Source: a virus
Lineage: Duplodnaviria; Caudoviricetes
Virus record (IMG/VR): IMGVR_UViG_2513237213_000004
Span: 9,381 to 73,380 of that record
Length of the DNA: 64,000 bases
Direction: 5' to 3' (one strand)
Shown one piece after another: positions 1 through 64,000 of the stretch. Each line of letters begins with the position of its first letter. Positions within the stretch are counted from its first letter, which is position 1. The translations under genes were made by a program, and so were the position numbers. Below the pieces are notes generated by a model. It did not search any database and was not told the origin of the DNA. It worked only from the letters and a program-made list of their open reading frames with translations.

Positions 1-3000
1 CCTTTAAACATACAATCATCACCAGCGCTCCAATCCTCTACTTTGTCGCTATCAAAGGATATGGATTTCTGATAGATACTACCTTCAACCGTGGGTGTAT
101 CCGTAGATGGATTCGATGGATTATCTGTAGACGGGTTATCCGTCGAAGGTTTGTCCGTGGACGGGTTATCTGTTGATGGATTGTCTGTCGAAGGTGTATC
201 CGTGGAAGGATTATCAGTAGACGGGTTATCCGTCGAAGGCTCGTCCGTGGACGGGCTATCTGTTGAAGGTGTAGGCGCACTCGGAAGCGTTATCTTCGTA
301 CCGCTAAGATTACATTCAATCGTCGTGGGAAGAATATTTCCAGAATGACCAAAGTATCCATTTTTAAAAGTGCGGAATCTGTAGAAATCAACGTTATCAA
401 CCTTGATAATCCACTTTCCACTAGCATTGCATTTCGTTGGAACATCAGTGCCGCCTTCCCAGAAAGCAAATACATCACCACCGGCTTTCATGTTTGTAGT
501 AATGTTCTGCAAAACAATCTGTGATGGCATTTCCAGTTTTCCATCGAATACACATTTATAAGAATTATCACCAACGTAAACAATATCCCCTAAGTTATAC
601 GACGTGTTAGCCTTCCATTCTGTTCCTTGCTTAGACGAAGAAATCCATTCCCAGATTATATCACCATCAACGCAACGAGCATTACTATTTACAGGAATTC
701 GGCCACTCGTCGTACCGTCCTGGTCCACCAATTTGTATACTCGTTCTACTCCGTCATTACCTTGGGAAATAACATAACTATCCTTTTCCCACCAAGTTTT
801 AGGGAACCAGTCTTTGCCAATGAAACCAAGTTTTGCCGTTCCCCAATCGAAGCTGCCATGCCAAGCCGTGTCAATCGGAGGCTTATCAGAAAGAATACCT
901 TCTTTGAGGACTTTGTAAAGACGATGATCCGCATAGATAATATCGTTCTTAGCCACTTCCATGCTCGGAGAAAAAGTCTTTGTAACGAACTTTTCTTTGG
1001 TATCAACGTATTCCCAATAGCAGGCATCAAGGCATTGCGGATATGTGTCAACACCTTCAATAACTTTGCCGGACGTATGTACCGGGCGATAACCATTGGA
1101 ATGACCAGCAGAAATACATTCCCAACAAGTCAACGGCTTCCAGGAAGATTCACTGGTATAGCAGCAATCACCGACGGAATAATCTTTGTTTGCCTGCCAC
1201 TCGTTCCATTCGACATATTTTACCGTCGCACTACCAAGAGAAAACTCTTTACCACTAAGGTCACTGGGTTTATTATCCTCACTAATCGTCGGAATCTTAC
1301 CGCCCTTAGTTACGAAAAAGATATTCGTATTATAGAAGGAGGTCAAGCCACTAGCATCAACGGAGCGATCAAACGTTCTAATGAACTGTCCACGGGATAC
1401 ACTTCCATCACCGGTATAAGCCTCTGTCCAGTCAATGCCCCGACCAAGGAGTTTCCAGCGTAATGTTCCCTTATCATCATTGCCGGTATCTTTGCACTGA
1501 CCAACAACTGTCGTAGGAGCCTGCCCAGAGGTCTTGCAATATCTTTTCCCTGCAACCATAAAGTAAACCAGATATGTATCCGGTTCATAACTATGGAAAT
1601 TGCAATCTCTAATCGTGATTTCCGGGAACTTATGCGTATCCAGCGTGCTCACGGCTTCTTTGTTAAAGTCGATTTTGCAAACATCGAATTCTTTCCCGCC
1701 TGGTTTCTTCAACCAAGCATCACAATTCTCAATGACAACCCGGCCCTCAAAAATTCGCCCATACGTCGTATTAAACTCAAGGATATGTGCATTAGGATAA
1801 CTATCGTTAGGCAATTCGTTGACATAGAAATTGCTATTAGTAATCTGACAAATACCACGGCCCTCACCAATCTGAATTGCATGATTAAAGAGGTTACAGT
1901 GGTCGATATACAAATTTTGGAAATAATTATGAATATCAAGACGGTTTGCATTGACTCGCTCAATATGAATATCCTTGACGCAGTTCATTGCCGTAGCGCC
2001 CCAATATCCTTGCATTGAAACATCGTGAATGTGGAGGTCAAGACAATTCGTTGCACGAATCATGTAGCCGGAAGTACCATTGGAGCTACCCTGCATTTTA
2101 CCGGCAGCATTGAAACCAACGATATCAGAGATTTCTGTATTATAGCAACCCCAGACATAAATCATCGTATTCTTAAATACTGTGTTGTGCATTTGATTAC
2201 TGTCTGGATAGAAATTAAATCCACGGATATGAGCGTTATGAGTCTTGCACCAGAGCACGGAGCAATACTTATTCGCGCTGGTAGCCAATTTTACATTACA
2301 GCCCACGAATTCATAGTGCGTCGATGGAAGCATATTGTAAGAAATTGTGAATTTACTATTTACAGTCTGCGTAGATGCTGCATGGCCTTCATAGCTTGAC
2401 AGAGAGGATTTGATTTCCAGGCCACCAGCGTTATTCCAATCGTATGTAATTGGATTAGCCAGCACGCCATCTGTCGTATGCAAGAGTAATTCATATCGTG
2501 GCTCTGAATAAAGATAACCGGAGTCATCGCGGACCGCATACGGTTCCTCTTGTAGAAAAATCAGAGCATTTTGTTCCAAGTGGGACTCTTTGCCTTCTGT
2601 CCCAATAACAAAGTTATCCTTCGTATATGTTTTCTTAGAATCATCCGTGGGTTCATAGGACCAATAATCTGTTTCGTTGTCACCCCAAAGGTAAAAGCCA
2701 AACCAGGTTGCATTACAATCCTGTACATATAACTCGGAACCAGACAGGTCGATGTTTCCATGACACTGGATAGGTTCATTGTTATCTTTCCGTATAATGC
2801 CCTCGTGATTTTCCAGCTTTACATAGTAATGCTTACGCTTAGAAATAGGCTCTATACTATAGTTTGACGATTGATAACGGTGTGCCATCATAATAGCGTC
2901 GTAATCATCAGTTTTACCATCAAGTTTAGCACCGAACATTCTATAGTTAATAACTTTTTCATCAAGTAAAGCATAAAGTTTCTTATGAACTTCCTTGCCA

Positions 3001-4180: not shown

Positions 4181-7100
4181 TTAATTAACAACAGTATAAA
4201 ATTTATTCGTATCGGCCAAAACGAAAAACGCTGCCGTACCAGAGCCATCAAGTTTTTCTGTGGACGCTACATCGAAATCAGCCGAATTAACATAGATGGC
4301 CCAATTGTGGTAAACATCGTAAGGCCATGTTTTACAAAACATTGGGGCGATATCTAGTGTTATTTCTACTGGTTGACCTGCTACGACAGGGAATTCAACA
4401 GAAACAATGTCTATAGATGAAATATAACCATAATCATTATAACTTCTACTATTATGAGCATATGGATCTGTACCTATTCTTAATTGAGAGCATCTTTGTC
4501 TATCAAAGAAAGCACCTTTATAAACTTGCCGACCACCGCATTTCACAGTCATCGTATCGCACCCTTCGTCAAACTTTATACCACAATCCGGTCTATAATA
4601 GCTATTACCGTTTCCAGCATCTTTCCCCATGCCACATGTGCAATACAATCTTACTTTATTACATGTAACAGGAGGATAAATTGTAAATGTAGTGGTATAG
4701 TTTTCTGCCCTACCCCATGAATACTTAGGGCCACCTCCACGTTTCATTGTCCATGCGACGGTATCTTTGATTGCGCTATGTGAATGAGCACCTTCAATTT
4801 CTGAATAAGCATGTACTCGGAAACCTTTTTTGCTTATTTCATCAGCATAGCATTTCAGAGAAATATTTGACGTTGAATACTCACTAGAACCTGTCAAGAC
4901 ATTCTGCGGAGTTACAATGACAGACGGAGTAACCGGCCATGGCTTAGTAAACTTGATATAATCGCCATTCTTTGCCACGCCCATAAGCATATGGGAAACA
5001 TTGGAAAACTCATTACCATTCTGGTCAGCAAAGGTCATGCCTCCTGCACCAAAGGTAACTGTTTCTCTCGAACCGGAAACATGAAGGCCGCTTACATCAA
5101 GGAGAACAGAGCCACCTTGTATACCTTGATTTCCCTGTAAGGCAATAGTGTTTGCACTCAATTTATCTGCGGTAATAGCCCCAGCCTTAATCATGCCACC
5201 AAAGATAACATCATCATCAAACTTCGTCGTACCGGTGATATGCAGATAATCACCGCTAATCGTAGTCCCCAATGGAGTCATATTAATCTGATTAATAATA
5301 TTTTTACCATTGAAATCCTTCGTTGCAACTCGCATATTTATATTGTCTTTCATCTGCGATATAGAACTATAACTGCAATTCTCCGGTGACTTCGATAACT
5401 CGGTTACAATGCTGCTGATTTTATCTCCTTGGATTTCCAATTGAGAAGTAGCATCTTTGAGTTTGTCTGCAACGTTAATATCAATTTCATTGGATAACTG
5501 TTTAATCTGTGATGCGGTCCTGGTTTTTAAATCTGTAACTGTACTTTTGATTTCTCCGTCAGATTTTTCCAATGCCGTGATTGACTCGTTGATTTTCAGA
5601 AGGTCTTTTGCAGTATCCTTGGCTTTTTTCAATGATTCTGCAATGCTCTTATCAACCTTATCCAACGAAATGCTTTCATCGTCAATCCACTCGCTTTTAA
5701 ATGTAGGACTAATCGTGAAACTATACTCATGGGATACATTGCCCTCGCCAATCCGGTCTACATAACAAGCCTTCAACGAATAAACATCCGGCTTGCCTTT
5801 GTATTCATAGATAGCATTGATTGAATCAATTGTATCCGCCGTATAAGCACCGGAAATATAAAATCTTACCTTATCTGCACCAGGCGGGAACGATGGAACT
5901 TTAATGGCTATTCCTCTTGGCGTATCCTCGAACTTAACATAGGATGGCGCATTAGGCTTCGGATAACTCCATTCACACGTTGCCGGATACGAATGTTTCC
6001 CTTGGAAATTCACCGCATATAAATACGCTTTACCGGTACGGTCACTGATGGAAACTTCAACGCTCCTGTCCGTTGTTCTCCCAAGAAGTCCATTGGGATT
6101 ACCTACTTTTTCATCAGTGCGTAATTCATAGTATTTTACATCGCTATCCAGAATATCGTCCCACATAAACAAGAAGCTATCCGAGAAATCATAATGAAGA
6201 TTCTGTGGGGAAGCCGGGACCGTTCTTCTAGGCTTTACGGTGCAATTACAATGGGGCGCGGTGGCCTCCGATGAAAGCAGGCCCTCGTCCGACTTAGCCT
6301 GGACCATAAATTCATATTCATCGCCAAGATGAACATTAGGAATAAGCATTGTCCCCTGTGATTCCCCTGCGGATTTCCACCCAGACAGATAACCAAGTTG
6401 GCTGATAGATACATCAGATGGAACATTCTCCAAGTCACATGCTACCGTACTATTAGTCTTGTAATATACCATTGCGGTATTTACGTCGTATCTCTCCGGC
6501 AATTTAAAGGACACCGCAATGTCATAGCCAACACTTGCGTCCGGGCGCGTTCTATACCGTGTAACCGCCGTTAAATCGGTAACATGGCCAGGTCTACGAC
6601 GCTCCGTGGAAATGGAGTCAGCATCGGCAGGGACATAGTTATACCAGCTTATGCCACCGCCTAAATCGTCATTGTAAAGGTCCGGGTTATACTGCCTGCC
6701 GGAGATTGTAAACTTATGGTCCTCGGTTTCCTTGATTTCCGCGATGCGAATAGGCAAATCCTTGAATACATCATGATAAGTTACCGTGACTACATCGCCC
6801 GGTTCCAGGTGCATAGCCTGGTAGCCGGTGGTGAAACTAAGCTGCAACGGGCAAGCCAGGTTATAATCTCGGTAGAACCGGGCCAACCGCAGCGCTTGAT
6901 TCTGTGAAGTCACACCGTTCAACTGTACTTCCTTAGTAACAATCTTTCCGCGTTCCTTCTGATCCGAAAAATCTTCACATAGGCAACACGTCGATTGCCA
7001 ATTATTCCGTGGATCAATGATTTTCACACTGTATTTATTCGGCGTTTCCGATAATCTCAAAGGAGCCACGGATAAATCGGAGCAATTACTATCGTTAAAC

Positions 7101-21090: not shown

Positions 21091-21162
21091 ACAATGGTAT
21101 AATTGTATAACTGTGTACCATTACGCCATTACACTGCTATACAATTACACCATTACAATGGT
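21091..21162. repeat. Octamer array 1 (9 units, 8-bp period)
   Basis: ACAATGGT ATAATTGT ATAACTGT GTACCATT ACGCCATT ACACTGCT ATACAATT ACACCATT ACAATGGT. Confidence 0.85.
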
Positions 21163-30551: not shown

Positions 30552-31193
30552 TTACAAATTACTCGGCGCTATCTTCCGCAGCGACTCAATCAGCATTGGA
30601 TTCTCACGGAACGCCTTCATAATTTCTTCATAAGATTCATTGTCTAAACGTACTCGAAGAATATCGTTGATGATATTCATTGCTTTTTCCACGGTCTTAT
30701 AGCAGTACACTTTCTCCTGGATCGCTCCGATCTCGGAGGAAAGCGTTTGTTGCCGCAGCGTCATTTTGTCGAGCATATCAATGACCTGCTTCAAATCTGA
30801 AACCTCTACATCACCATTACCCACTCTCCGGTCCAGTTCATCGAGCTCAACCGAGATAATGTCAACCGCGTTGTTTACGAGATTCAGCGCCTTGACCTTG
30901 GTTCCATAGACGTTTACCACCTGTTCATCGGTGGGCGCGGTCATGTCACCGCCAAGGCCATTGTCCCTGCACCACCGAGCAATTGAGTTATGGGAAATCT
31001 TGTAGCCGTTGGGAATCAAGTTCCCATCGTTGATTTCCTTCGTGATGTCACGGTAACTCTTGCCCTTTAGTCGCTTATCGCGAACCAGTTCACACAGACC
31101 GAACTGTTCTACCAGGGAACCCATGGCCCCGTTGGTATGCAGCCGGTCCGGGGCTTTGTTTCCCGGTGGTGGCGCAGGATGATTCCTTGCCAT
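30552..31193 (-). CDS. Probable terminase small subunit
   Basis: N-terminal HTH-like KSYRDITKEIN...ISHNSIARW followed by a helical region; first gene upstream of terL. Confidence 0.55.
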   Translation of the reverse strand: MARNHPAPPPGNKAPDRLHTNGAMGSLVEQFGLCELVRDKRLKGKSYRDITKEINDGNLIPNGYKISHNSIARWCRDNGLGGDMTAPTDEQVVNVYGTKVKALNLVNNAVDIISVELDELDRRVGNGDVEVSDLKQVIDMLDKMTLRQQTLSSEIGAIQEKVYCYKTVEKAMNIINDILRVRLDNESYEEIMKAFRENPMLIESLRKIAPSNL

Positions 31194-31221
31194 ACCAAAC
31201 ACTCCTTATTTTGTTTGTATT

Positions 31222-31252
31222 AAAAAAGGAGCACCAGCCGCAGCTATGCTCC
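31222..31252 (-). terminator. Intrinsic terminator immediately upstream of terS
   Basis: GGAGCA-13-TGCTCC followed by T6. Confidence 0.6.
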
Positions 31253-31286
31253 CCGGCACCTCCCCGCAGGTACTATGCCTATTCTT

Positions 31287-31342
31287 ATACATTTACGCCA
31301 TTACACCGTTATAACTGTATACCTTTACAATGGTATAATGTC
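31287..31342. repeat. Octamer array 2 (7 units)
   Basis: ATACATTT ACGCCATT ACACCGTT ATAACTGT ATACCTTT ACAATGGT ATAATGTC. Confidence 0.8.
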
Positions 31343-31355
31343 GTATATTTTCATG

Positions 31356-31425
31356 TGGCAGTCAAAGGAGTCGAACCTTTACCTCTGCTGGAATCGCAGT
31401 GTTCCTACCGTTAAACTATCCCGCC
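31356..31425 (-). pseudogene. Degenerate tRNA/tRNA-like element (Gly-TCC-like, shortened anticodon arm)
   Basis: Intact D arm GTTT-AACGGTAG-GAAC and T arm AAAGG-TTCGACT-CCTTT; acceptor stem has 2 mismatches; anticodon arm CTGC-GATTCCA-GCAG is about 2 nt short. Confidence 0.65.
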
Positions 31426-31426
31426 A

Positions 31427-32151
31427 TAAAAGGGGCCTGCGCCCCATTCCCGTTTAGGCCACGGGCAAGACCTCTGCAATCAAACCTACAACTCATTGCA
31501 GCCCTTAGTTGTCGTATAAGGTTTTTAGACCACGAGCAGAGGAACATCGAACATACCAGCTACTAGTGCGAACACCTATCTGTAATGCTCTATGAACCCT
31601 TGTTCTCTTGTGGCAAACTAGGTACGGTAGCTACACTTCTTTTTTAAGAAACCTATTGACTTTCCTGGCTCCCAGGTTATACTTTCTTGATTTCCAGGAA
31701 ACGGCTTCGGGCAGACTATCCCCTGCAAAGGAGATAGATTAGACTGTCCGTAGATACTTTCCGTCATTCCGAGGTATCCGTATCCGTGGTGCTCCTGCCA
31801 ACCAATGAAATCATCGGTCAGCCATAGCCTATCAGTCAATTACGCCCCAGACTGTCCCAGGTTTCCCCGGCAAGACTATGAACCCTTCCCACCACCGTTA
31901 TCGTGGCAGTCAAGCGATTAACCCTCCGCGCCCTATTTTTAACCATGGCTTTCGCTTTAGGCTTAACGAGGTCTTGCAGCGCTTTTCAACCCCTTTGGTA
32001 ACTCCCCAATAGCACCGAACAGACCAGGGAGGCCCCGCATATTCTCTGCATCAGCTATGCGACACTGGCAATTTATATACCGCAGGCAGCGGATAGGAAC
32101 CAGGCAGCGAAATAACGTATGCCACCGGGAACCCCTTCGGCTCACACCGAC
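31427..32151 (-). ncRNA. Candidate long structured RNA A (about 725 nt)
   Basis: Strong promoter, no credible ORF or SD, many hairpins, ends in GGGGC-GCAG-GCCCC-TTTT just before the tRNA-like element. Confidence 0.55.
31656..31683 (+). promoter_or_regulatory. Antisense promoter TTGACT-16-TATACT inside RNA A
   Basis: Read directly from the sequence; A/T-rich UP-like tract upstream. Confidence 0.5.
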
Positions 32152-32157
32152 AAATAT

Positions 32158-32186
32158 ATTGTACTCTTGTTAATCTATATTGTCAA
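32158..32186 (-). promoter_or_regulatory. Sigma70-type promoter TTGACA-17-TACAAT driving RNA A
   Basis: Near-consensus; nearly identical to the promoter at 56751-56779. Confidence 0.8.
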
Positions 32187-32291
32187 CACTGAAATATATT
32201 GGTCATTCAATGTATAACTATGGTTGCTTAGGTATTCTATGATAACTAAGTAACTCCTAAGTAAGTACCAAGGATAAAAGTGGTATAGGTA

Positions 32292-32324
32292 TGAGCGAAG
32301 CGAATACCAAGTGAGCGAAGCGAA
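32292..32324 (+). repeat. Direct repeat TGAGCGAAGCGAA x2 (20-bp period)
   Basis: Copies at 32292-32304 and 32312-32324. Confidence 0.8.
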
Positions 32325-32381
32325 CTTCAAACCACTGGATTCAATGATATACTATGTTACCCCCCTACCCCCCGTACATAT

Positions 32382-32430
32382 ATAATATGAAAATCGACAC
32401 TTTTCACAACCCTATTTTGAAAAAAAGTTT
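32382..32430 (-). promoter_or_regulatory. Candidate phage late promoter (copy 2)
   Basis: GGGTTGTGAAAA-N13-TATTAT, as at 10722-10770. Confidence 0.5.
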
Positions 32431-32504
32431 AAAAATTTTTTCTTGGGAGCTCCGGAGGGCCTTCGGCGGGGCTTTGGTATTTCCAGAAGCACCCAAGTGA
32501 TGCT

Positions 32505-32805
32505 CTGGTATTCTATGTATATACCTATGGAGAAATATGGAGAAAATTTTTCTCTGGTTGGCCTTTAGATCCACAAATGCTCTCTGGTCAGATTCTTTGC
32601 ACCCCTGGTATCGCCTTCGCGGGCCTTAGTATGCCTGGTCCTTTATGCTTTTTGTCTGGTCAGCTATGGTTTTCTATGTATCACTCCTATGAACCCTTAT
32701 GGGACAAGGCTTCACACTGGTTTTCTATGGTAACCTATGTATATTTCTTCTGTATCACACCCCAGGAAGCCTTATGTAGCAAGGGCTGACGCTGGTTTTG
32801 CTATG
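32505..32805 (+). repeat. Cluster of (C/A)TGGT-N3/4-CTATG degenerate repeats
   Basis: Copies at 32505, 32656, 32666, 32717, 32727 and 32792, plus several partial CTGGT units. Confidence 0.6.
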
Positions 32806-33458
32806 AAAAAATTTGGAAATGGCGTCGTTACGAACTTGGGACTATGCCCGCGCCCGGAACCCCAGAAAAATCGGCATTGGAAGCCCTTTTCGCACCCCGG
32901 CCCCATTGCCAGGACAAGGCAGCCCCATTTTTCCCAGGAAGGGCCCCGCCGGAACAAACGCCAAACACGCGGCGACGCTGAAAAGCCGGGACCCCCCCGC
33001 CACACAAGGCCCCGCGCCTATTCCCTGCTATGTGACTTTATATGTATATAGTCACATTTTATAGGGTAAAACGTCCATTTTTTCCGGGAAAAGGCCCGGA
33101 AAAGGCCATACAAACCCCATAGAGGCCATTTAAGCCCTTGCCTATGTAATTATACCTATCAACACATAGAAGGCCCTTGCAGGCCCCATAAGGCCGTATA
33201 AATCCGTGGTATGGTATTTTGCTATTGTTCCCTATTCCCTGCATAATTCTGCGTATATTCTGCGTATAATCCTAGCGCCTCCCAGCCATCCCAGGACAAA
33301 AGAGGCCCTTGTATGATCTCCCATCCTGCCATACTATGTATAACTTTGTTTTTTCTTTTATATTGAAGGTTTTTGTATATGACTATACTATGTATTAATT
33401 TTTTTTAACACTGTAAGCCCGCGCCACGCAAGGGCCCGCGCTGCACACATGATAATAA

Positions 33459-42870: not shown

Positions 42871-42924
42871 AAGTGACTTTTTGAAAAAATAATGCTTGCA
42901 GCGGTATTTCCTCTATGTTATAAT
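42871..42924 (+). promoter_or_regulatory. Promoter TTGCAG-17-TATAAT with upstream box AAGTGACTTTTTGAAAAAATA
   Basis: Read directly from the sequence; box identical to 33459-33479. Confidence 0.7.
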
Positions 42925-42946
42925 GGAGGAAAAGGAGGAAGGAAAA

Positions 42947-43756
42947 ATGATGGATTACACAGAATTCCTAGAAGAAGTACGAAAAACGCGCCGGGAATCA
43001 ACCTGGAAAAGCTATTGCATGGCCTTGGAAAAGTTTCCGGAAGGAACCGAAGAAGAAATCATTGATTACATTGATAAGTCACCGCATCAGGGCAGCACTA
43101 AGAAGGCCAATTTGCGTATCCTGCGTTTGGCCCTGGATTACAACGGGGCTTTAACCAAAGGAATCAAGCGCATTATCAAGTCATACCGTCCGGATGAATC
43201 CTTGCAGGAATGTCCCACGGATAAGCAGGTTGAAAAGATCTGGGACCATCTTAAATCCTTCCGCGAAAAGGCAATGTTCTCCCTCATGGCTTATATGGGC
43301 TTTCGTGTTGGCGAAGTCCGGAACCTGAATCTCAATGACATTACGGAAAATGGCATGATTATCATCCGTAAATCCAAAGGTCATCGCCCGGACATTATGC
43401 CGATGGTCCACAAGCGGGTATATGAATCACTTAGATCCTACCTGCATGAGCGTCGAAACACAGATAACCAGGCATTATTTACCGGTCCCCATGGCAGGTT
43501 ATCCCTGGGATATATTAAGAATATGTTTATCAATGAATTCAAGAGTAATGACCTCCCACAATTCCACTGTCATTCCCTCCGGAGATACTTCGCAAACTCC
43601 ATGTATAACAATGGCGTATCCTTGTTAGATATGCAGGACAACATGAGACATAAATCCCCGGAAACCACGAAACGCTATTTGAACCTTGGTCAGCAGAATC
43701 GTATCGACGCGATGCGGAAAACCTGGGGCGACAATGTTTCAAAAATGTTTGCATAA
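42947..43756 (+). CDS. Tyrosine recombinase, short XerC/D-like
   Basis: Catalytic set GFRVGE (R), SKG (K), HSLRR (HxxR), MRH (H), TKRY (Y); about 270 aa with no arm-binding domain. Confidence 0.9.
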   Translation: MMDYTEFLEEVRKTRRESTWKSYCMALEKFPEGTEEEIIDYIDKSPHQGSTKKANLRILRLALDYNGALTKGIKRIIKSYRPDESLQECPTDKQVEKIWDHLKSFREKAMFSLMAYMGFRVGEVRNLNLNDITENGMIIIRKSKGHRPDIMPMVHKRVYESLRSYLHERRNTDNQALFTGPHGRLSLGYIKNMFINEFKSNDLPQFHCHSLRRYFANSMYNNGVSLLDMQDNMRHKSPETTKRYLNLGQQNRIDAMRKTWGDNVSKMFA

Positions 43757-55004: not shown

Positions 55005-55733
55005 TCACTTCTCCTGCCGCGGATAATACTTCTTAATCCTCGGCTCTCCATCGAATGTAGACAAGAATTTTATCAGCTTGTCCCGCGCATCCTCTGGCGA
55101 ATCACAGTATTGGTCATAGTACATCTTGCCTTTATAGAAGAATCTCCACCCCCAACGCTTCTTCTTAGTGTTATAAGAAACGCCGTGATAAGGGCTCCTA
55201 GTCATTCTGTATTCATTACAGGGGATAAAAGGCAAGATCTTTATTGCCTGCTTTTCCTTCTCTGTAAATTCGTTAAGGCAAGCATACTCTCCATAGAATT
55301 TCTTTGCCCACTCATTATACTTAACCGCAGCCTCAAGCTCTGTAGGGTATGAATCCTTTGTATAGGCTTTGTTATCCTTCCAAAACATCACACACCAATG
55401 ACCAAAGCGGTCACGGGTTACGCCCTTGAACTTAGAGGTACAATCACGGGAATCAGTCTTTTTAGAGTTCCACGCGTTTTCCTTTGCCGATACAAGCCGG
55501 AGATTTTCTCTGCGATTATCTAAGGTATTATGGTTAATATGGTCTACCATCATACCGACCTGGGCTCCCATAATAACTCTATGAAGTAGCCCTAGCTTAT
55601 CGTTGATGCAATAAGGGCGGTCAGATTGGCCATTAACATGCCATACTACCGACGAATACTTTTCATAGATATCATCATCTACCAAAGTAAAAAGGTTTTC
55701 CCCACGCTTACCAGACAAAGGAATTTTTTTCAT
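55005..55733 (-). CDS. HNH homing endonuclease with AP2 domains
   Basis: LHRVIM..VDHINHNTLDNRRENLR; SKFKGV..ELEAAVKYN; second YHGVSY..W repeat. Confidence 0.88.
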   Translation of the reverse strand: MKKIPLSGKRGENLFTLVDDDIYEKYSSVVWHVNGQSDRPYCINDKLGLLHRVIMGAQVGMMVDHINHNTLDNRRENLRLVSAKENAWNSKKTDSRDCTSKFKGVTRDRFGHWCVMFWKDNKAYTKDSYPTELEAAVKYNEWAKKFYGEYACLNEFTEKEKQAIKILPFIPCNEYRMTRSPYHGVSYNTKKKRWGWRFFYKGKMYYDQYCDSPEDARDKLIKFLSTFDGEPRIKKYYPRQEK

Positions 55734-56626
55734 TCTCTTGGCATCTCCTTATGATAATTCCCGCAATGGTGAGTCTGAAAGAAATCACAATACTCATTCA
55801 CATCGCACCAATCAGCGCACCTGCGATTAGGATAAGTCTTACTGCTATCCCAACGCTCTGACTTCTTACAAGGTGGTGGACATACGCCGTTTTGCAATGC
55901 CTCACGCAATCTCTTAGCCTTTGTTTCAAAGTAAAGCCTTATCCACCGCTTACTAATGAGATTGATAGGAACAATATAAGCTGCTTGTGTTAGTCCCATT
56001 TTCTTAGCCTCGGCATCAATGGATGAACGTAGGAACATATTTACTCGAATCTGCTTCACGGGCAATCCTTCGTTCTCCATCATATAGCGGTAATAGTTTA
56101 ACTGGATTGCAATATCCATTACTTTGCGGACGCCATTGGGCTCCCATATCTGTTCCCATACTTCTTCACCTTTGCGCTTTCCCCTTGTAACTGTTCGTTT
56201 TCTCCACTTCGGAGTCATTCCCAAACAACGAGCAATTCTCCCGCTGCGGAAAAATTTCCAGTCCCACAGGGTTTGCGTGGTCGGATCATAAGCATCAAAG
56301 CACCCAGAGGTAATATCATCCGTCATTCGATGTTCTGCCATCCAGCCATCCGGAGAAGCATCCTCAAACGCCTTATGACTGTTTGTCCCAATCATAGCAG
56401 CGATACTTCCCATTGGATGAATCGCATAATCCTTGGTTATCTCCAAGAACGTCTGTCTTGTCGGTTTGATAAGCTGCGTTACGCTCGGCTTACCGAACCA
56501 ATGACGGGTGCTTTCTACCGCCGCAGTGAGCGCTGGTAGAGACATGCACCGATGGTCACACCCCTTCAAGCATTGCTCAAAGGGAACCTTTTCTCCGGCT
56601 TGACACCGGAAGAACTTAGCAGGCAA
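55730..56626 (-). CDS. PD-(D/E)XK (Cas4-like) nuclease
   Basis: SVTQLI, GCFD, LWDWK, QLNYY motifs; C-terminal Cys cluster. Confidence 0.75.
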   Translation of the reverse strand: MPAKFFRCQAGEKVPFEQCLKGCDHRCMSLPALTAAVESTRHWFGKPSVTQLIKPTRQTFLEITKDYAIHPMGSIAAMIGTNSHKAFEDASPDGWMAEHRMTDDITSGCFDAYDPTTQTLWDWKFFRSGRIARCLGMTPKWRKRTVTRGKRKGEEVWEQIWEPNGVRKVMDIAIQLNYYRYMMENEGLPVKQIRVNMFLRSSIDAEAKKMGLTQAAYIVPINLISKRWIRLYFETKAKRLREALQNGVCPPPCKKSERWDSSKTYPNRRCADWCDVNEYCDFFQTHHCGNYHKEMPRE

Positions 56627-56670
56627 CTAAGTTCCGAGCTCCTTACTATACAAAGTAAATCCTCCTTCGT

Positions 56671-56726
56671 ACACCATTGTAGCATTATGCCATTACAATG
56701 GTGTAACGTTATACCATTATACCGTT
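56671..56726. repeat. Octamer array 4 (7 units)
   Basis: ACACCATT GTAGCATT ATGCCATT ACAATGGT GTAACGTT ATACCATT ATACCGTT. Confidence 0.85.
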
Positions 56727-56750
56727 GGGTTTGCCCCAACAACATAATAT

Positions 56751-56779
56751 ATTCTACTCTTGTTAATTATAATTGTCAA
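56751..56779 (-). promoter_or_regulatory. Sigma70-type promoter TTGACA-17-TAGAAT
   Basis: Spacer ends in TTAACAAGAG, as in the RNA A promoter. Confidence 0.75.
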
Positions 56780-56795
56780 GGGTTAAATATAATAT

Positions 56796-62680: not shown

Positions 62681-63292
62681 AATGGGGAAAATGAGAACTT
62701 GGGGAAGTGTGTTTGTGCGTGTCCCCATCCGCAGAAGTCCTCTGTCTAATCATCATACGAAACAGGGACTTCCTACCTAGTATAACATATGCAAAAAAAA
62801 AAAAAACAGTTAATCTCTATCTTTGGGCACAGTCCGTTTCTAAGCTACTTCCTACTACGCCCGCCGCGATAAGCACCCCTGAAACGCTTCGTAACGCCCA
62901 AACTTTGACATGGGAGATAAGCACTAAAACTATCTAAATTCATCGTATGTTTTTTTAAACTTCTTATTGACTTTAGCGTTATTTTATGATGGAAGCCGAA
63001 GGAAACGGGAGAGCAAAGCATAGTGCTACCTTAGACATCGAAAAGACAATAGTCTACTGTAGCACTACAACGAAAATTGATGGAATCCGTGAGGTTTCCG
63101 GTGTCGCTTTTCGCAATTCAATTAGTCATCGTCACTACAACGATACAGAGGTTTCATAGTGGTCTAAGTACCCCACACTACCACGCCCCTCGACGTGTTC
63201 CTCTGGCCCGGTTTATTTCAACCGTACTCTAGGCTCAATACCAATGTATCTTGCCCTTTTAGCCCCCGCAGGCTTCTTAACGCTCCATAAAC

Positions 63293-63334
63293 AAAAAATG
63301 CGTTGGTCTAATAGCCTTCCACGGCCCCAACGCA
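63293..63334 (-). terminator. Terminator/attenuator hairpin inside RNA B
   Basis: TGCGTTGG...CCAACGCA followed by T6. Confidence 0.55.
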
Positions 63335-63584
63335 CTGTCTATCTACGCTTATTATGGGAGTTAACCTGTTCTTCACCCACTTAGGTCATCGTCCTGTATT
63401 GAATAAACCAGGACGAACCCCGCCGACTTACTGCTGCCGCTGGCGATACGGTGGACTCTCTATGAGTTGCCAATTTATATACCGCCTGCTCGCGGTGGCA
63501 TCCATGCTTTCCCAGAATAAGGATCTGGGCGACCTATGGCGGCTTCTTCTCGCCATTGAGGACCATGAAACACCGCACAAGAAC

Positions 63585-63858: not shown

Positions 63859-63981
63859 ACGCCATTACGCCATTACACCATTATACATGTGTGATACCGT
63901 TATAACGGTGTAATGGCTTGACTGTATAATGGTGTAGCGTTATAATGTTACACAGGTACAACGGTATAATAGTATAATGAT
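63859..63981. repeat. Octamer array 6 (about 15 units) containing a plus-strand promoter TTGACT-17-TATAAT (63918-63946)
   Basis: ACGCCATT ACGCCATT ACACCATT ATACATGT (gtg) ATACCGTT ATAACGGT GTAATGGC TTGACTGT ATAATGGT GTAGCGTT ATAATGTT ACACAGGT ACAACGGT ATAATAGT ATAATGAT; an SD GGGGAGG follows at the window edge. Confidence 0.9.
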
Positions 63982-64000
63982 ATGAAGGGGAGGAATACCA

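Follow-up and report, generated by a model that had tools for sequence, protein, structure and literature searches.

The stretch without open reading frames that precedes the packaging genes of this phage is, on the evidence of related loci, a composite of two separately inherited structured RNAs that have become joined. The phage belongs to a ruminant-gut group. The window analysed here is the final 64 kb of a 73-kb contig (C4), whose GC content is below that of the 3.0-Mb chromosome; a check for circularity found no overlap between the ends of the contig. From the promoter to a terminator-like hairpin, the stretch covers ~725 nt without a conserved open reading frame, and all its features lie on the minus strand. 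We consider it probable that this unit is a fusion of two RNA genes in a non-coding RNA island ahead of the packaging operon, the 5' part (module 1) being an undescribed accessory RNA and the core of the 3' part (module 2) a widely conserved RNA of four hairpins. The original prediction had proposed a structured non-coding RNA of ~725 nt, either a new ornate RNA or a cis-acting antiterminator leader. A new ornate RNA fits the 5' ~510 nt, but the whole is not supported as a single RNA, since the 5' ~510 nt and the 3' ~215 nt are independent and have genes or tRNAs between them in most of the relatives that carry both.

Results and Discussion

Genomic setting and search for relatives

Among the genes of the window are an integrase (42896–43756), a ribonucleotide reductase and a primase-helicase. 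The RNA stretch sits upstream of the terminase and portal genes, and the ~31 kb of genes downstream of it are all on the same strand. The packaging operon starts with a gene for a 216-aa protein of no known family (30552–31202, minus strand), a candidate small terminase by position only. After it come a BRO-N/HNH protein, a large terminase of the Mu type (phrog_38, E 1e-106) and the portal protein.

The productive route to relatives was this neighbouring 216-aa protein. Its 40 homologues were collected and their contigs compared, and the resulting set of 34 related loci was examined against the RNA stretch with BLAST and nhmmer. The contigs come mostly from bovine, sheep and goat gut metagenomes. 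Direct searches gave little: blastn with the RNA stretch found no homologue among the INPHARED phages, and in a BLAST search of 262 genomes of the host family the window's own genome was the sole match. Exact-pattern scans returned L119 as the only relative in IMG/VR, while the 94 matches to the 15-mer GCGGTATATAAATTG, the 31 matches in JGI metagenomes and the matches in the genome collection (0, then 16) were chance, as judged by nhmmer for the 15-mer and the metagenomes. One metatranscriptome (X21) gave zero cover of the stretch, which counts neither for nor against transcription.

Two modules and their junction

Module 1, which has many helices, occupies positions 31644–32152 (minus strand). 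Module 2 consists of a 5' half (31532–31643, minus strand), conserved among the closer relatives only, and a core of four hairpins (31425–31531, minus strand), from which a covariance model, R1, was built. In the window the two modules are joined at ~31644/31645 with ~15 nt between them, the shortest form among the loci.

Full-length copies of module 1 are present in the window and in five relatives (L101, L110, L102, L119 and L181), with nhmmer E values of 1e-129 to 1e-167 in the first four, and fragments were found in L111 and L114. Module 2, on the other hand, is kept without module 1 in L003, L099, L100 and others, and its 5' half is 82–86% identical in L003, L099, L100 and L110–L114 whether module 1 is present or absent. 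What separates the modules varies from locus to locus: a Mom-like gene and a small ORF in L101, L110 and L114, a single small ORF in L111, a tRNA and an N6/N4 methyltransferase in L102, and two tRNA or tRNA-like genes in L181. In L119, module 1 is followed by a small hydrophobic ORF of ~50 aa (520–669, minus strand), which lies directly 3' of the T-run, has the ribosome-binding site GGAGG and could encode a membrane peptide or a toxin.

The T-run that closes module 1 elsewhere is reduced to GGTTTCTT in the window. Contigs from two other ruminant-gut runs span the junction with ~94% identity, and the fused form is therefore a natural variant and no assembly artefact.

It is also worth considering what comes after the RNA elements and before the packaging genes. 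In relatives this slot holds genes for Mom-like proteins, N6/N4 methyltransferases and a PAPS-reductase-family protein, and DNA-modification genes were located there in L101 (3658–4359), L110 (1712–2479), L003 (5270–5870), L102 (4005–4655), L107 (4028–4666) and L106 (5660–6475). The slot before the packaging genes thus appears to be an anti-restriction hot spot.

A 12-mer, AAGGGTTCATAG, had been reported to recur at 31590, 31876 and 32687, and it does so exactly, with all three copies on the minus strand against 0.29 expected. It is common to module 1 and the 5' half of module 2, and its third copy (32687–32698) lies in a region of CTATG iterons. In the 1.25 kb from 32210 to 33455 this motif occurs 16 times on the plus strand and twice on the minus strand. 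One could imagine a primer or regulatory transcript of an adjacent origin in this region, or a packaging component like the phi29 pRNA. Such a role would fit the location between an iteron-rich non-coding region and the terminase genes, as well as the shared 12-mer; in L102, furthermore, a divergent gene for a Rep3-type plasmid initiator (971–2455) is found ~860 nt upstream of module 1. However, module 1 is missing from most of the relatives that have the same packaging genes and cannot, therefore, be indispensable for packaging or replication. The window's phage also has its own primase-helicase elsewhere, and no similarity to pRNA or to the Rfam plasmid primer and antisense families was found. 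We regard a replication or packaging role as quite improbable. Apart from this question, the initiator in L102 hints at a phage-plasmid lifestyle for some members of the group; in its place, the phage of the window has an integrase.

Structure of module 1

The absence of a translated ORF from the stretch, as claimed originally, is borne out by the homologues. No ORF is conserved in the copies of module 1, where open frames reach at most 88 codons and lie in differing places. The substitutions have no 3-base periodicity, and the indels are mostly of 1–2 nt and mostly not multiples of three.

Taken alone, the sequence folds only mildly better than shuffled sequences, with z scores of −1.74 for the minus strand and −0.56 for the plus strand. 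The case for structure therefore rests on covariation with relatives. The set comprises six sequences that are ~74% alike overall, three of them being more than 85% alike. From a sequence-only MAFFT alignment of five copies we obtained a proposed structure of 117 pairs in 18 helices, with 93.4% paired. Compensatory changes are seen at 36 of the 117 pairs, to be compared with 15.2 ± 2.8 in column shuffles (none of 500 reaches 36) and with 6–9 in controls in which the partners were slid by 1–3 columns. When the divergent L181 is added, the six-sequence RNAalifold fold has 39 compensatory pairs out of 116. The long-range helices differ between the five- and six-sequence folds; the local helices are secure, and the long-range ones should be taken as provisional. 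Many invariant G-U pairs are valid on the minus-strand reading only, which points to an RNA rather than a DNA structure.

The covariation among homologues, which the original prediction had named as a check, also sorts the individual stems that it had listed for the transcript. The stems CCGGG-GAAA-CCTGG, CAGTC/GACTG and CCCGT/ACGGG covary in the homologues, and relatives retain AGCTA..CTAGT/ACTAG-TAGCT only in part. The stems AAACCT/AGGTTT and ACAACT/AGTTGT find no support, as they clash with the strongly covarying hairpins H1 and H2 of the module 2 core. The same applies to a closing helix UGGCA/UGCCA, which forms only 3–4 of its 5 pairs in L101, L102, L119 and L181 and has a covarying competitor.

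The 5' domain of module 1 (31966–32094, minus strand) is composed of a hairpin, UAUAUAAAU, a pseudoknot, a long covarying stem-loop and AAAGGGGUUGAA. The pseudoknot contains a short helix in which A-U and G-C pairs switch in step in all five sequences, and the loop pairs downstream. A covariance model of this domain, R2, scores the five seed sequences at 127–159 bits and L181 at 82 bits.

Further downstream is the hairpin CCGGG-GAAA-CCUGG (31857–31871, minus strand), with a GAAA tetraloop that is invariant in all six sequences and a stem that covaries (CCGGG/CCUGG versus CGGUG/CGCCG, and others). The alignments reveal, in addition, an element resembling a tetraloop receptor, GCCUAAAGC-GAAA-GCCAUGG (31943–31962, minus strand), which reads CCUAAG...UAUGG in L110, L102 and L181 and CCUAAA...CAUGG in the window, L101 and L119. 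The former letters are those of what we take to be the 11-nt GAAA-tetraloop receptor, and the latter are presumably a plausible equivalent variant.

We also considered the possibility that the RNAs have no function of their own, being decayed remnants of old tRNA genes, a dead intron or a mobile element whose structure reflects shared ancestry. The tRNA-like element next to module 2 is indeed clearly degenerate, the single-sequence folding is just marginally above the shuffles, and the sequences are few and related. On the other hand, compensatory changes are far more numerous than in either the shuffled or the slid controls, all six copies retain the promoter, no group I or group II intron model matches, and the loops GAAA, UAUAUAAAU and GAUGCAGAGAAU are invariant across the module 1 copies at an overall likeness of ~74%. 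This explanation is, in our judgement, highly improbable.

Promoter, terminator-like hairpins and operator-like repeats

Module 1 is preceded by a sigma-70-type promoter, TTGACA-17-TACAAT (32186 to 32158, minus strand), which agrees with the consensus at 11 of 12 positions, as had been recognized in the original prediction. All five homologues have it in the same place, with TTGACA, a spacer of 17–18 nt and TATACT or TATAAT. A second copy of the promoter, 85% identical, is found in the window at 56746–56791 (minus strand) as TTGACA-17-TAGAAT. On its 3' side are a small hairpin, an operator-like cluster and a gene (55730–56626), and the primase-helicase gene is just upstream.

The 3' end of module 1 carries a conserved GUCAAG-NN-U6. 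There is no clear GC-rich hairpin directly before this sequence, and termination at this point is therefore uncertain.

The terminal hairpin GGGGC-GCAG-GCCCC followed by UUUU (31445 to 31432, minus strand) was likewise part of the original prediction, and it is recovered by the terminator scan. With 5 G-C pairs, a 4-nt loop and UUUUAU it has the form of an intrinsic terminator, and it covaries in the relatives. It turns out to be the fourth hairpin of the module 2 core. It may act as a terminator, or it may simply precede a processed tRNA, as tRNAs come directly after it in relatives. A second terminator-like hairpin, GGAGCA...UGCUCC followed by U6 (31222–31252, minus strand), was read from the sequence just before the ribosome-binding site of the 216-aa gene, and L003 and L181 have equivalents with T-runs.

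Between the tRNA-like element and the 216-aa gene there is an operator-like cluster of CCATTAC / GGTATAA repeats (31285–31341, minus strand). Similar clusters recur in the window at 56660–56720, 63860–63990 and 21118–21150, and in L003 at 4890–4930, 5225–5260 and 5873–5925. The motif is near-palindromic, CCATTRYAATGG with GGTATAA repeats, and the clusters are located between promoters or RNA elements and the first genes of several operons. They look like operators of a phage regulator. In relatives they flank inserted accessory genes on both sides, and they may serve as recombination joints for gene cassettes.

Module 2 core and the adjacent tRNAs

We now consider the 3' part of the stretch. 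Model R1, which describes the ~105-nt core, matches the window and 29 of 33 related loci; in the R1 search the core is absent from L178–L180 and L182. It is always located 100–400 nt upstream of the homologue of the 216-aa gene and in the same orientation, and in most of the related phages it has tRNA genes around it. In an alignment fitted to the model, pairing holds in 97.9% of the cells and both sides change in 15 of 21 pairs; the score for covariation reaches 0.736, compared to 0.19 for shuffles and at most 0.155 for slid controls.

Directly after the U-run of the core is a degenerate tRNA-like element of 70 nt (31356–31425, minus strand). It scores 36.3 bits with the Rfam tRNA model, whose threshold is 29 bits, while ARAGORN calls no tRNA. 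Its acceptor stem has two non-pairs at the base, and its anticodon loop is non-canonical and lacks U33. At the same position the relatives have real tRNAs (Tyr, Met, Arg) or odd ones; neighbouring tRNAs or tRNA-like elements occur in the window, L102, L104, L106, L116, L168 and L181. A tRNA-Tyr abuts the U-run of the core in L104 and L106, a tRNA-Tyr precedes the core in L116, and in L168 the core has tRNA-Tyr and tRNA-Met before it and tRNA-Arg after it. Odd or degenerate tRNA genes beside the core were observed in L102 (3876–3946 and 4789–4857), L104 (4421–4495) and L106 (4310–4384), with 'anticodons' of 4 or 2 nt according to ARAGORN.

These neighbours bear on the main rival explanation, namely a leader of the late operon that acts in cis and comprises the whole unit or, at the least, module 2. 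In this scenario, RNA-mediated antitermination or attenuation would govern read-through of the hairpins at 31445–31432 and 31252–31222, and module 1 would be a sensor or an extension. It applies chiefly to the module 2 core, for which it is possible. The fixed distance and orientation of the core relative to the first gene of the packaging operon are what one would expect of a leader, as are the hairpin and U-run at its end that the terminator scan accepts, the second terminator-like hairpin before the ribosome-binding site in the window, L003 and L181, and the ~31 kb of downstream genes on one strand. Moreover, the GGUUU in the loop of H2 could pair with an A-run and CC on the 5' side of H1, forming an alternative structure or a pseudoknot. 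Nevertheless, real tRNA genes abut the core on either side in several relatives (L104, L106, L116 and L168), which is more in keeping with a processed array of RNAs than with a pure leader. The operator-like cluster between the core and the 216-aa gene suggests that the operon is controlled separately, module 1, with a promoter and a T-run of its own, is dispensable, and no Rfam leader or antiterminator family matches. Taken together, a leader covering the unit or module 2 is an alternative of some weight that we nonetheless consider unlikely.

A possible distant copy in RNA B

A possible distant copy of the 5' domain of module 1 was detected with R2 in another part of the window, RNA B (63496 to 63354, minus strand). 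The match extends over the full length of the model with 19.1 bits (E 0.0017) and includes a compensated long stem. RNA B and module 1 have the exact 15-mer GCGGUAUAUAAAUUG in common, and blastn aligns just 41 nt at 75%. When R2 was run over 150 genomes of the family, four weak matches of 18.6–20.9 bits were obtained; they look like chance, as they lack UAUAUAAA and contain many non-pairs. Because chance matches reach similar scores, the copy in RNA B is suggestive only. The part of RNA B that resembles module 1 (63290–63500, minus strand) is ~200 nt long and has its own terminator, GCGUUGG...CCAACGC with U6 (~63334–63293). RNA B may thus be a short form of the module 1 RNA family, nearer in size to the throat-1 RNA.

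Proposed function

The reading that we favour is that module 1 is an optional, independently promoted and highly structured non-coding RNA. It would act in trans as a stable folded accessory RNA of the phage, of the kind represented by GOLLD and ROOL, and the GAAA loop and the receptor-like element could contribute to compact folding or to self-association. The conserved promoter, the conserved non-coding fold, the optional presence, the fixed slot and the GOLLD/ROOL-like setting together favour such a trans-acting accessory RNA. A role of module 1 in cis, as a long 5' leader, is possible, as the genes that follow it are always in the same orientation.

In most homologues module 1 would end at the T-run, after which come tRNAs or DNA-modification genes. 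In the window we infer that transcription from the promoter probably continues into module 2, because no cassette lies between the modules here and only a degraded T-run is left. The module 2 core would then either be freed as a small RNA by tRNA processing or act as a leader that governs read-through into the packaging genes. Transcription itself, like action in trans and any biochemical role, is a prediction.

We know of very few bacterial or phage RNAs longer than 400 nt with extensive conserved structure, and to our knowledge the function of GOLLD and ROOL is still not known. If an unrelated large RNA does reside in a tRNA island before the late genes, it would mean that this niche repeatedly yields such RNAs. 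With ~510 nt, module 1 is a compact target for cryo-EM and genetics. The natural series of variants, with the RNA alone, with tRNAs, with a Mom or methyltransferase gene, or without the RNA, offers a ready comparison for studies of function. The ~105-nt core next to tRNAs is a separate and much commoner candidate RNA, suited to modelling and to submission to Rfam.

Comparison with known RNAs

Rfam 15 was searched at gathering thresholds, and the tRNA-like element was the only match in the stretch. In permissive scans of 2.8 kb and 761 nt the only addition was throat-1, below its threshold. Module 1 appears, by these searches, to be a family that matches no described Rfam family.

Several other candidates were rejected. 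A group II intron finds no support, as RF01998 has no match in the genome, no intron family appears in the region scans, and neither L101 nor L110 keeps the 5' GUGUG. HEARO and other transposon guide RNAs, retron RNA and CRISPR give no Rfam match either, and the neighbouring genes that were scanned contain no reverse transcriptase, Cas or TnpB domain.

Among the Rfam models, only throat-1 (RF03110) gives recurrent matches to module 1, and these always fall in the 5' domain. The window scores 18.3 bits and L101 20.4 bits, well short of the threshold of 124.4 bits, and the model finds no member in 151 genomes of the phylum. The two RNAs share a hairpin, UAUAAAU, a short helix with a loop able to pair downstream as a pseudoknot, GGGG, a long stem-loop, CC and then AAAGGnnGAA, but about half of the 334-position model is unmatched. 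A relationship between throat-1 and module 1 should be treated as a lead and not as a result. More speculatively still, module 1, the copy in RNA B and throat-1 might form one undescribed superfamily of phage RNAs with a pseudoknotted core in common. The ~510-nt form would then be a third large RNA of the GOLLD/ROOL kind, using the GAAA loop and receptor for compact folding or self-assembly and acting on tRNAs or the translation apparatus during infection. We consider this doubtful.

The put RNA of phage HK022 and the EAR element of Bacillus are cis-acting RNAs of processive antitermination. The module 2 core resembles them in being a short multi-hairpin RNA near the start of a terminator-containing operon. 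It differs in that there is no sequence or model match and that the core is flanked by tRNA genes.

GOLLD and ROOL are phage or prophage RNAs found near tRNA islands (bioRxiv 10.1101/2024.12.08.627333; PMC5737381). The original prediction had mentioned both and assigned the RNA to neither, and by the Rfam models it belongs to neither. In the whole genome neither GOLLD (RF02032, threshold 150 bits) nor ROOL (RF03087, threshold 99.1 bits) has a match at E ≤ 10, the permissive region scans yield none, and the control genomes are likewise without a match to ROOL, which leaves the sensitivity of the ROOL search uncertain.

In GOLLD the 3' region is described as conserved and the 5' region as less so, and the linker sometimes contains tRNAs (bioRxiv 10.1101/2024.12.08.627333). 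The present locus is similar in holding large structured phage RNA in or beside a tRNA island. It also has an analogous layout without detectable homology, with a widespread 3' core, an optional 5' module and tRNAs or genes between the two. It differs in size, as many GOLLD members exceed 800 nt while the parts here measure ~510 and 105 nt. The parts also have separate promoters or contexts, and intervening protein genes can place them more than 1 kb from each other.

The comparison with ROOL concerns module 1 in particular. Module 1 is far rarer, with six copies found, and its long-range helices, which change between the folds, give no firm basis for comparing junction counts or helix layout. 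ROOL and GOLLD assemble into RNA-only homo-oligomeric cages; for module 1, self-association would be an analogy. ROOL is similar in its setting, being phage-associated, found in the rumen or ruminant gut near tRNAs and having no obvious protein partner, and it is similar in its dimensions as well: ROOL comprises ~500–600 nt with many helices and pseudoknots, and module 1 comprises ~510 nt with 18 helices and at least one pseudoknot.
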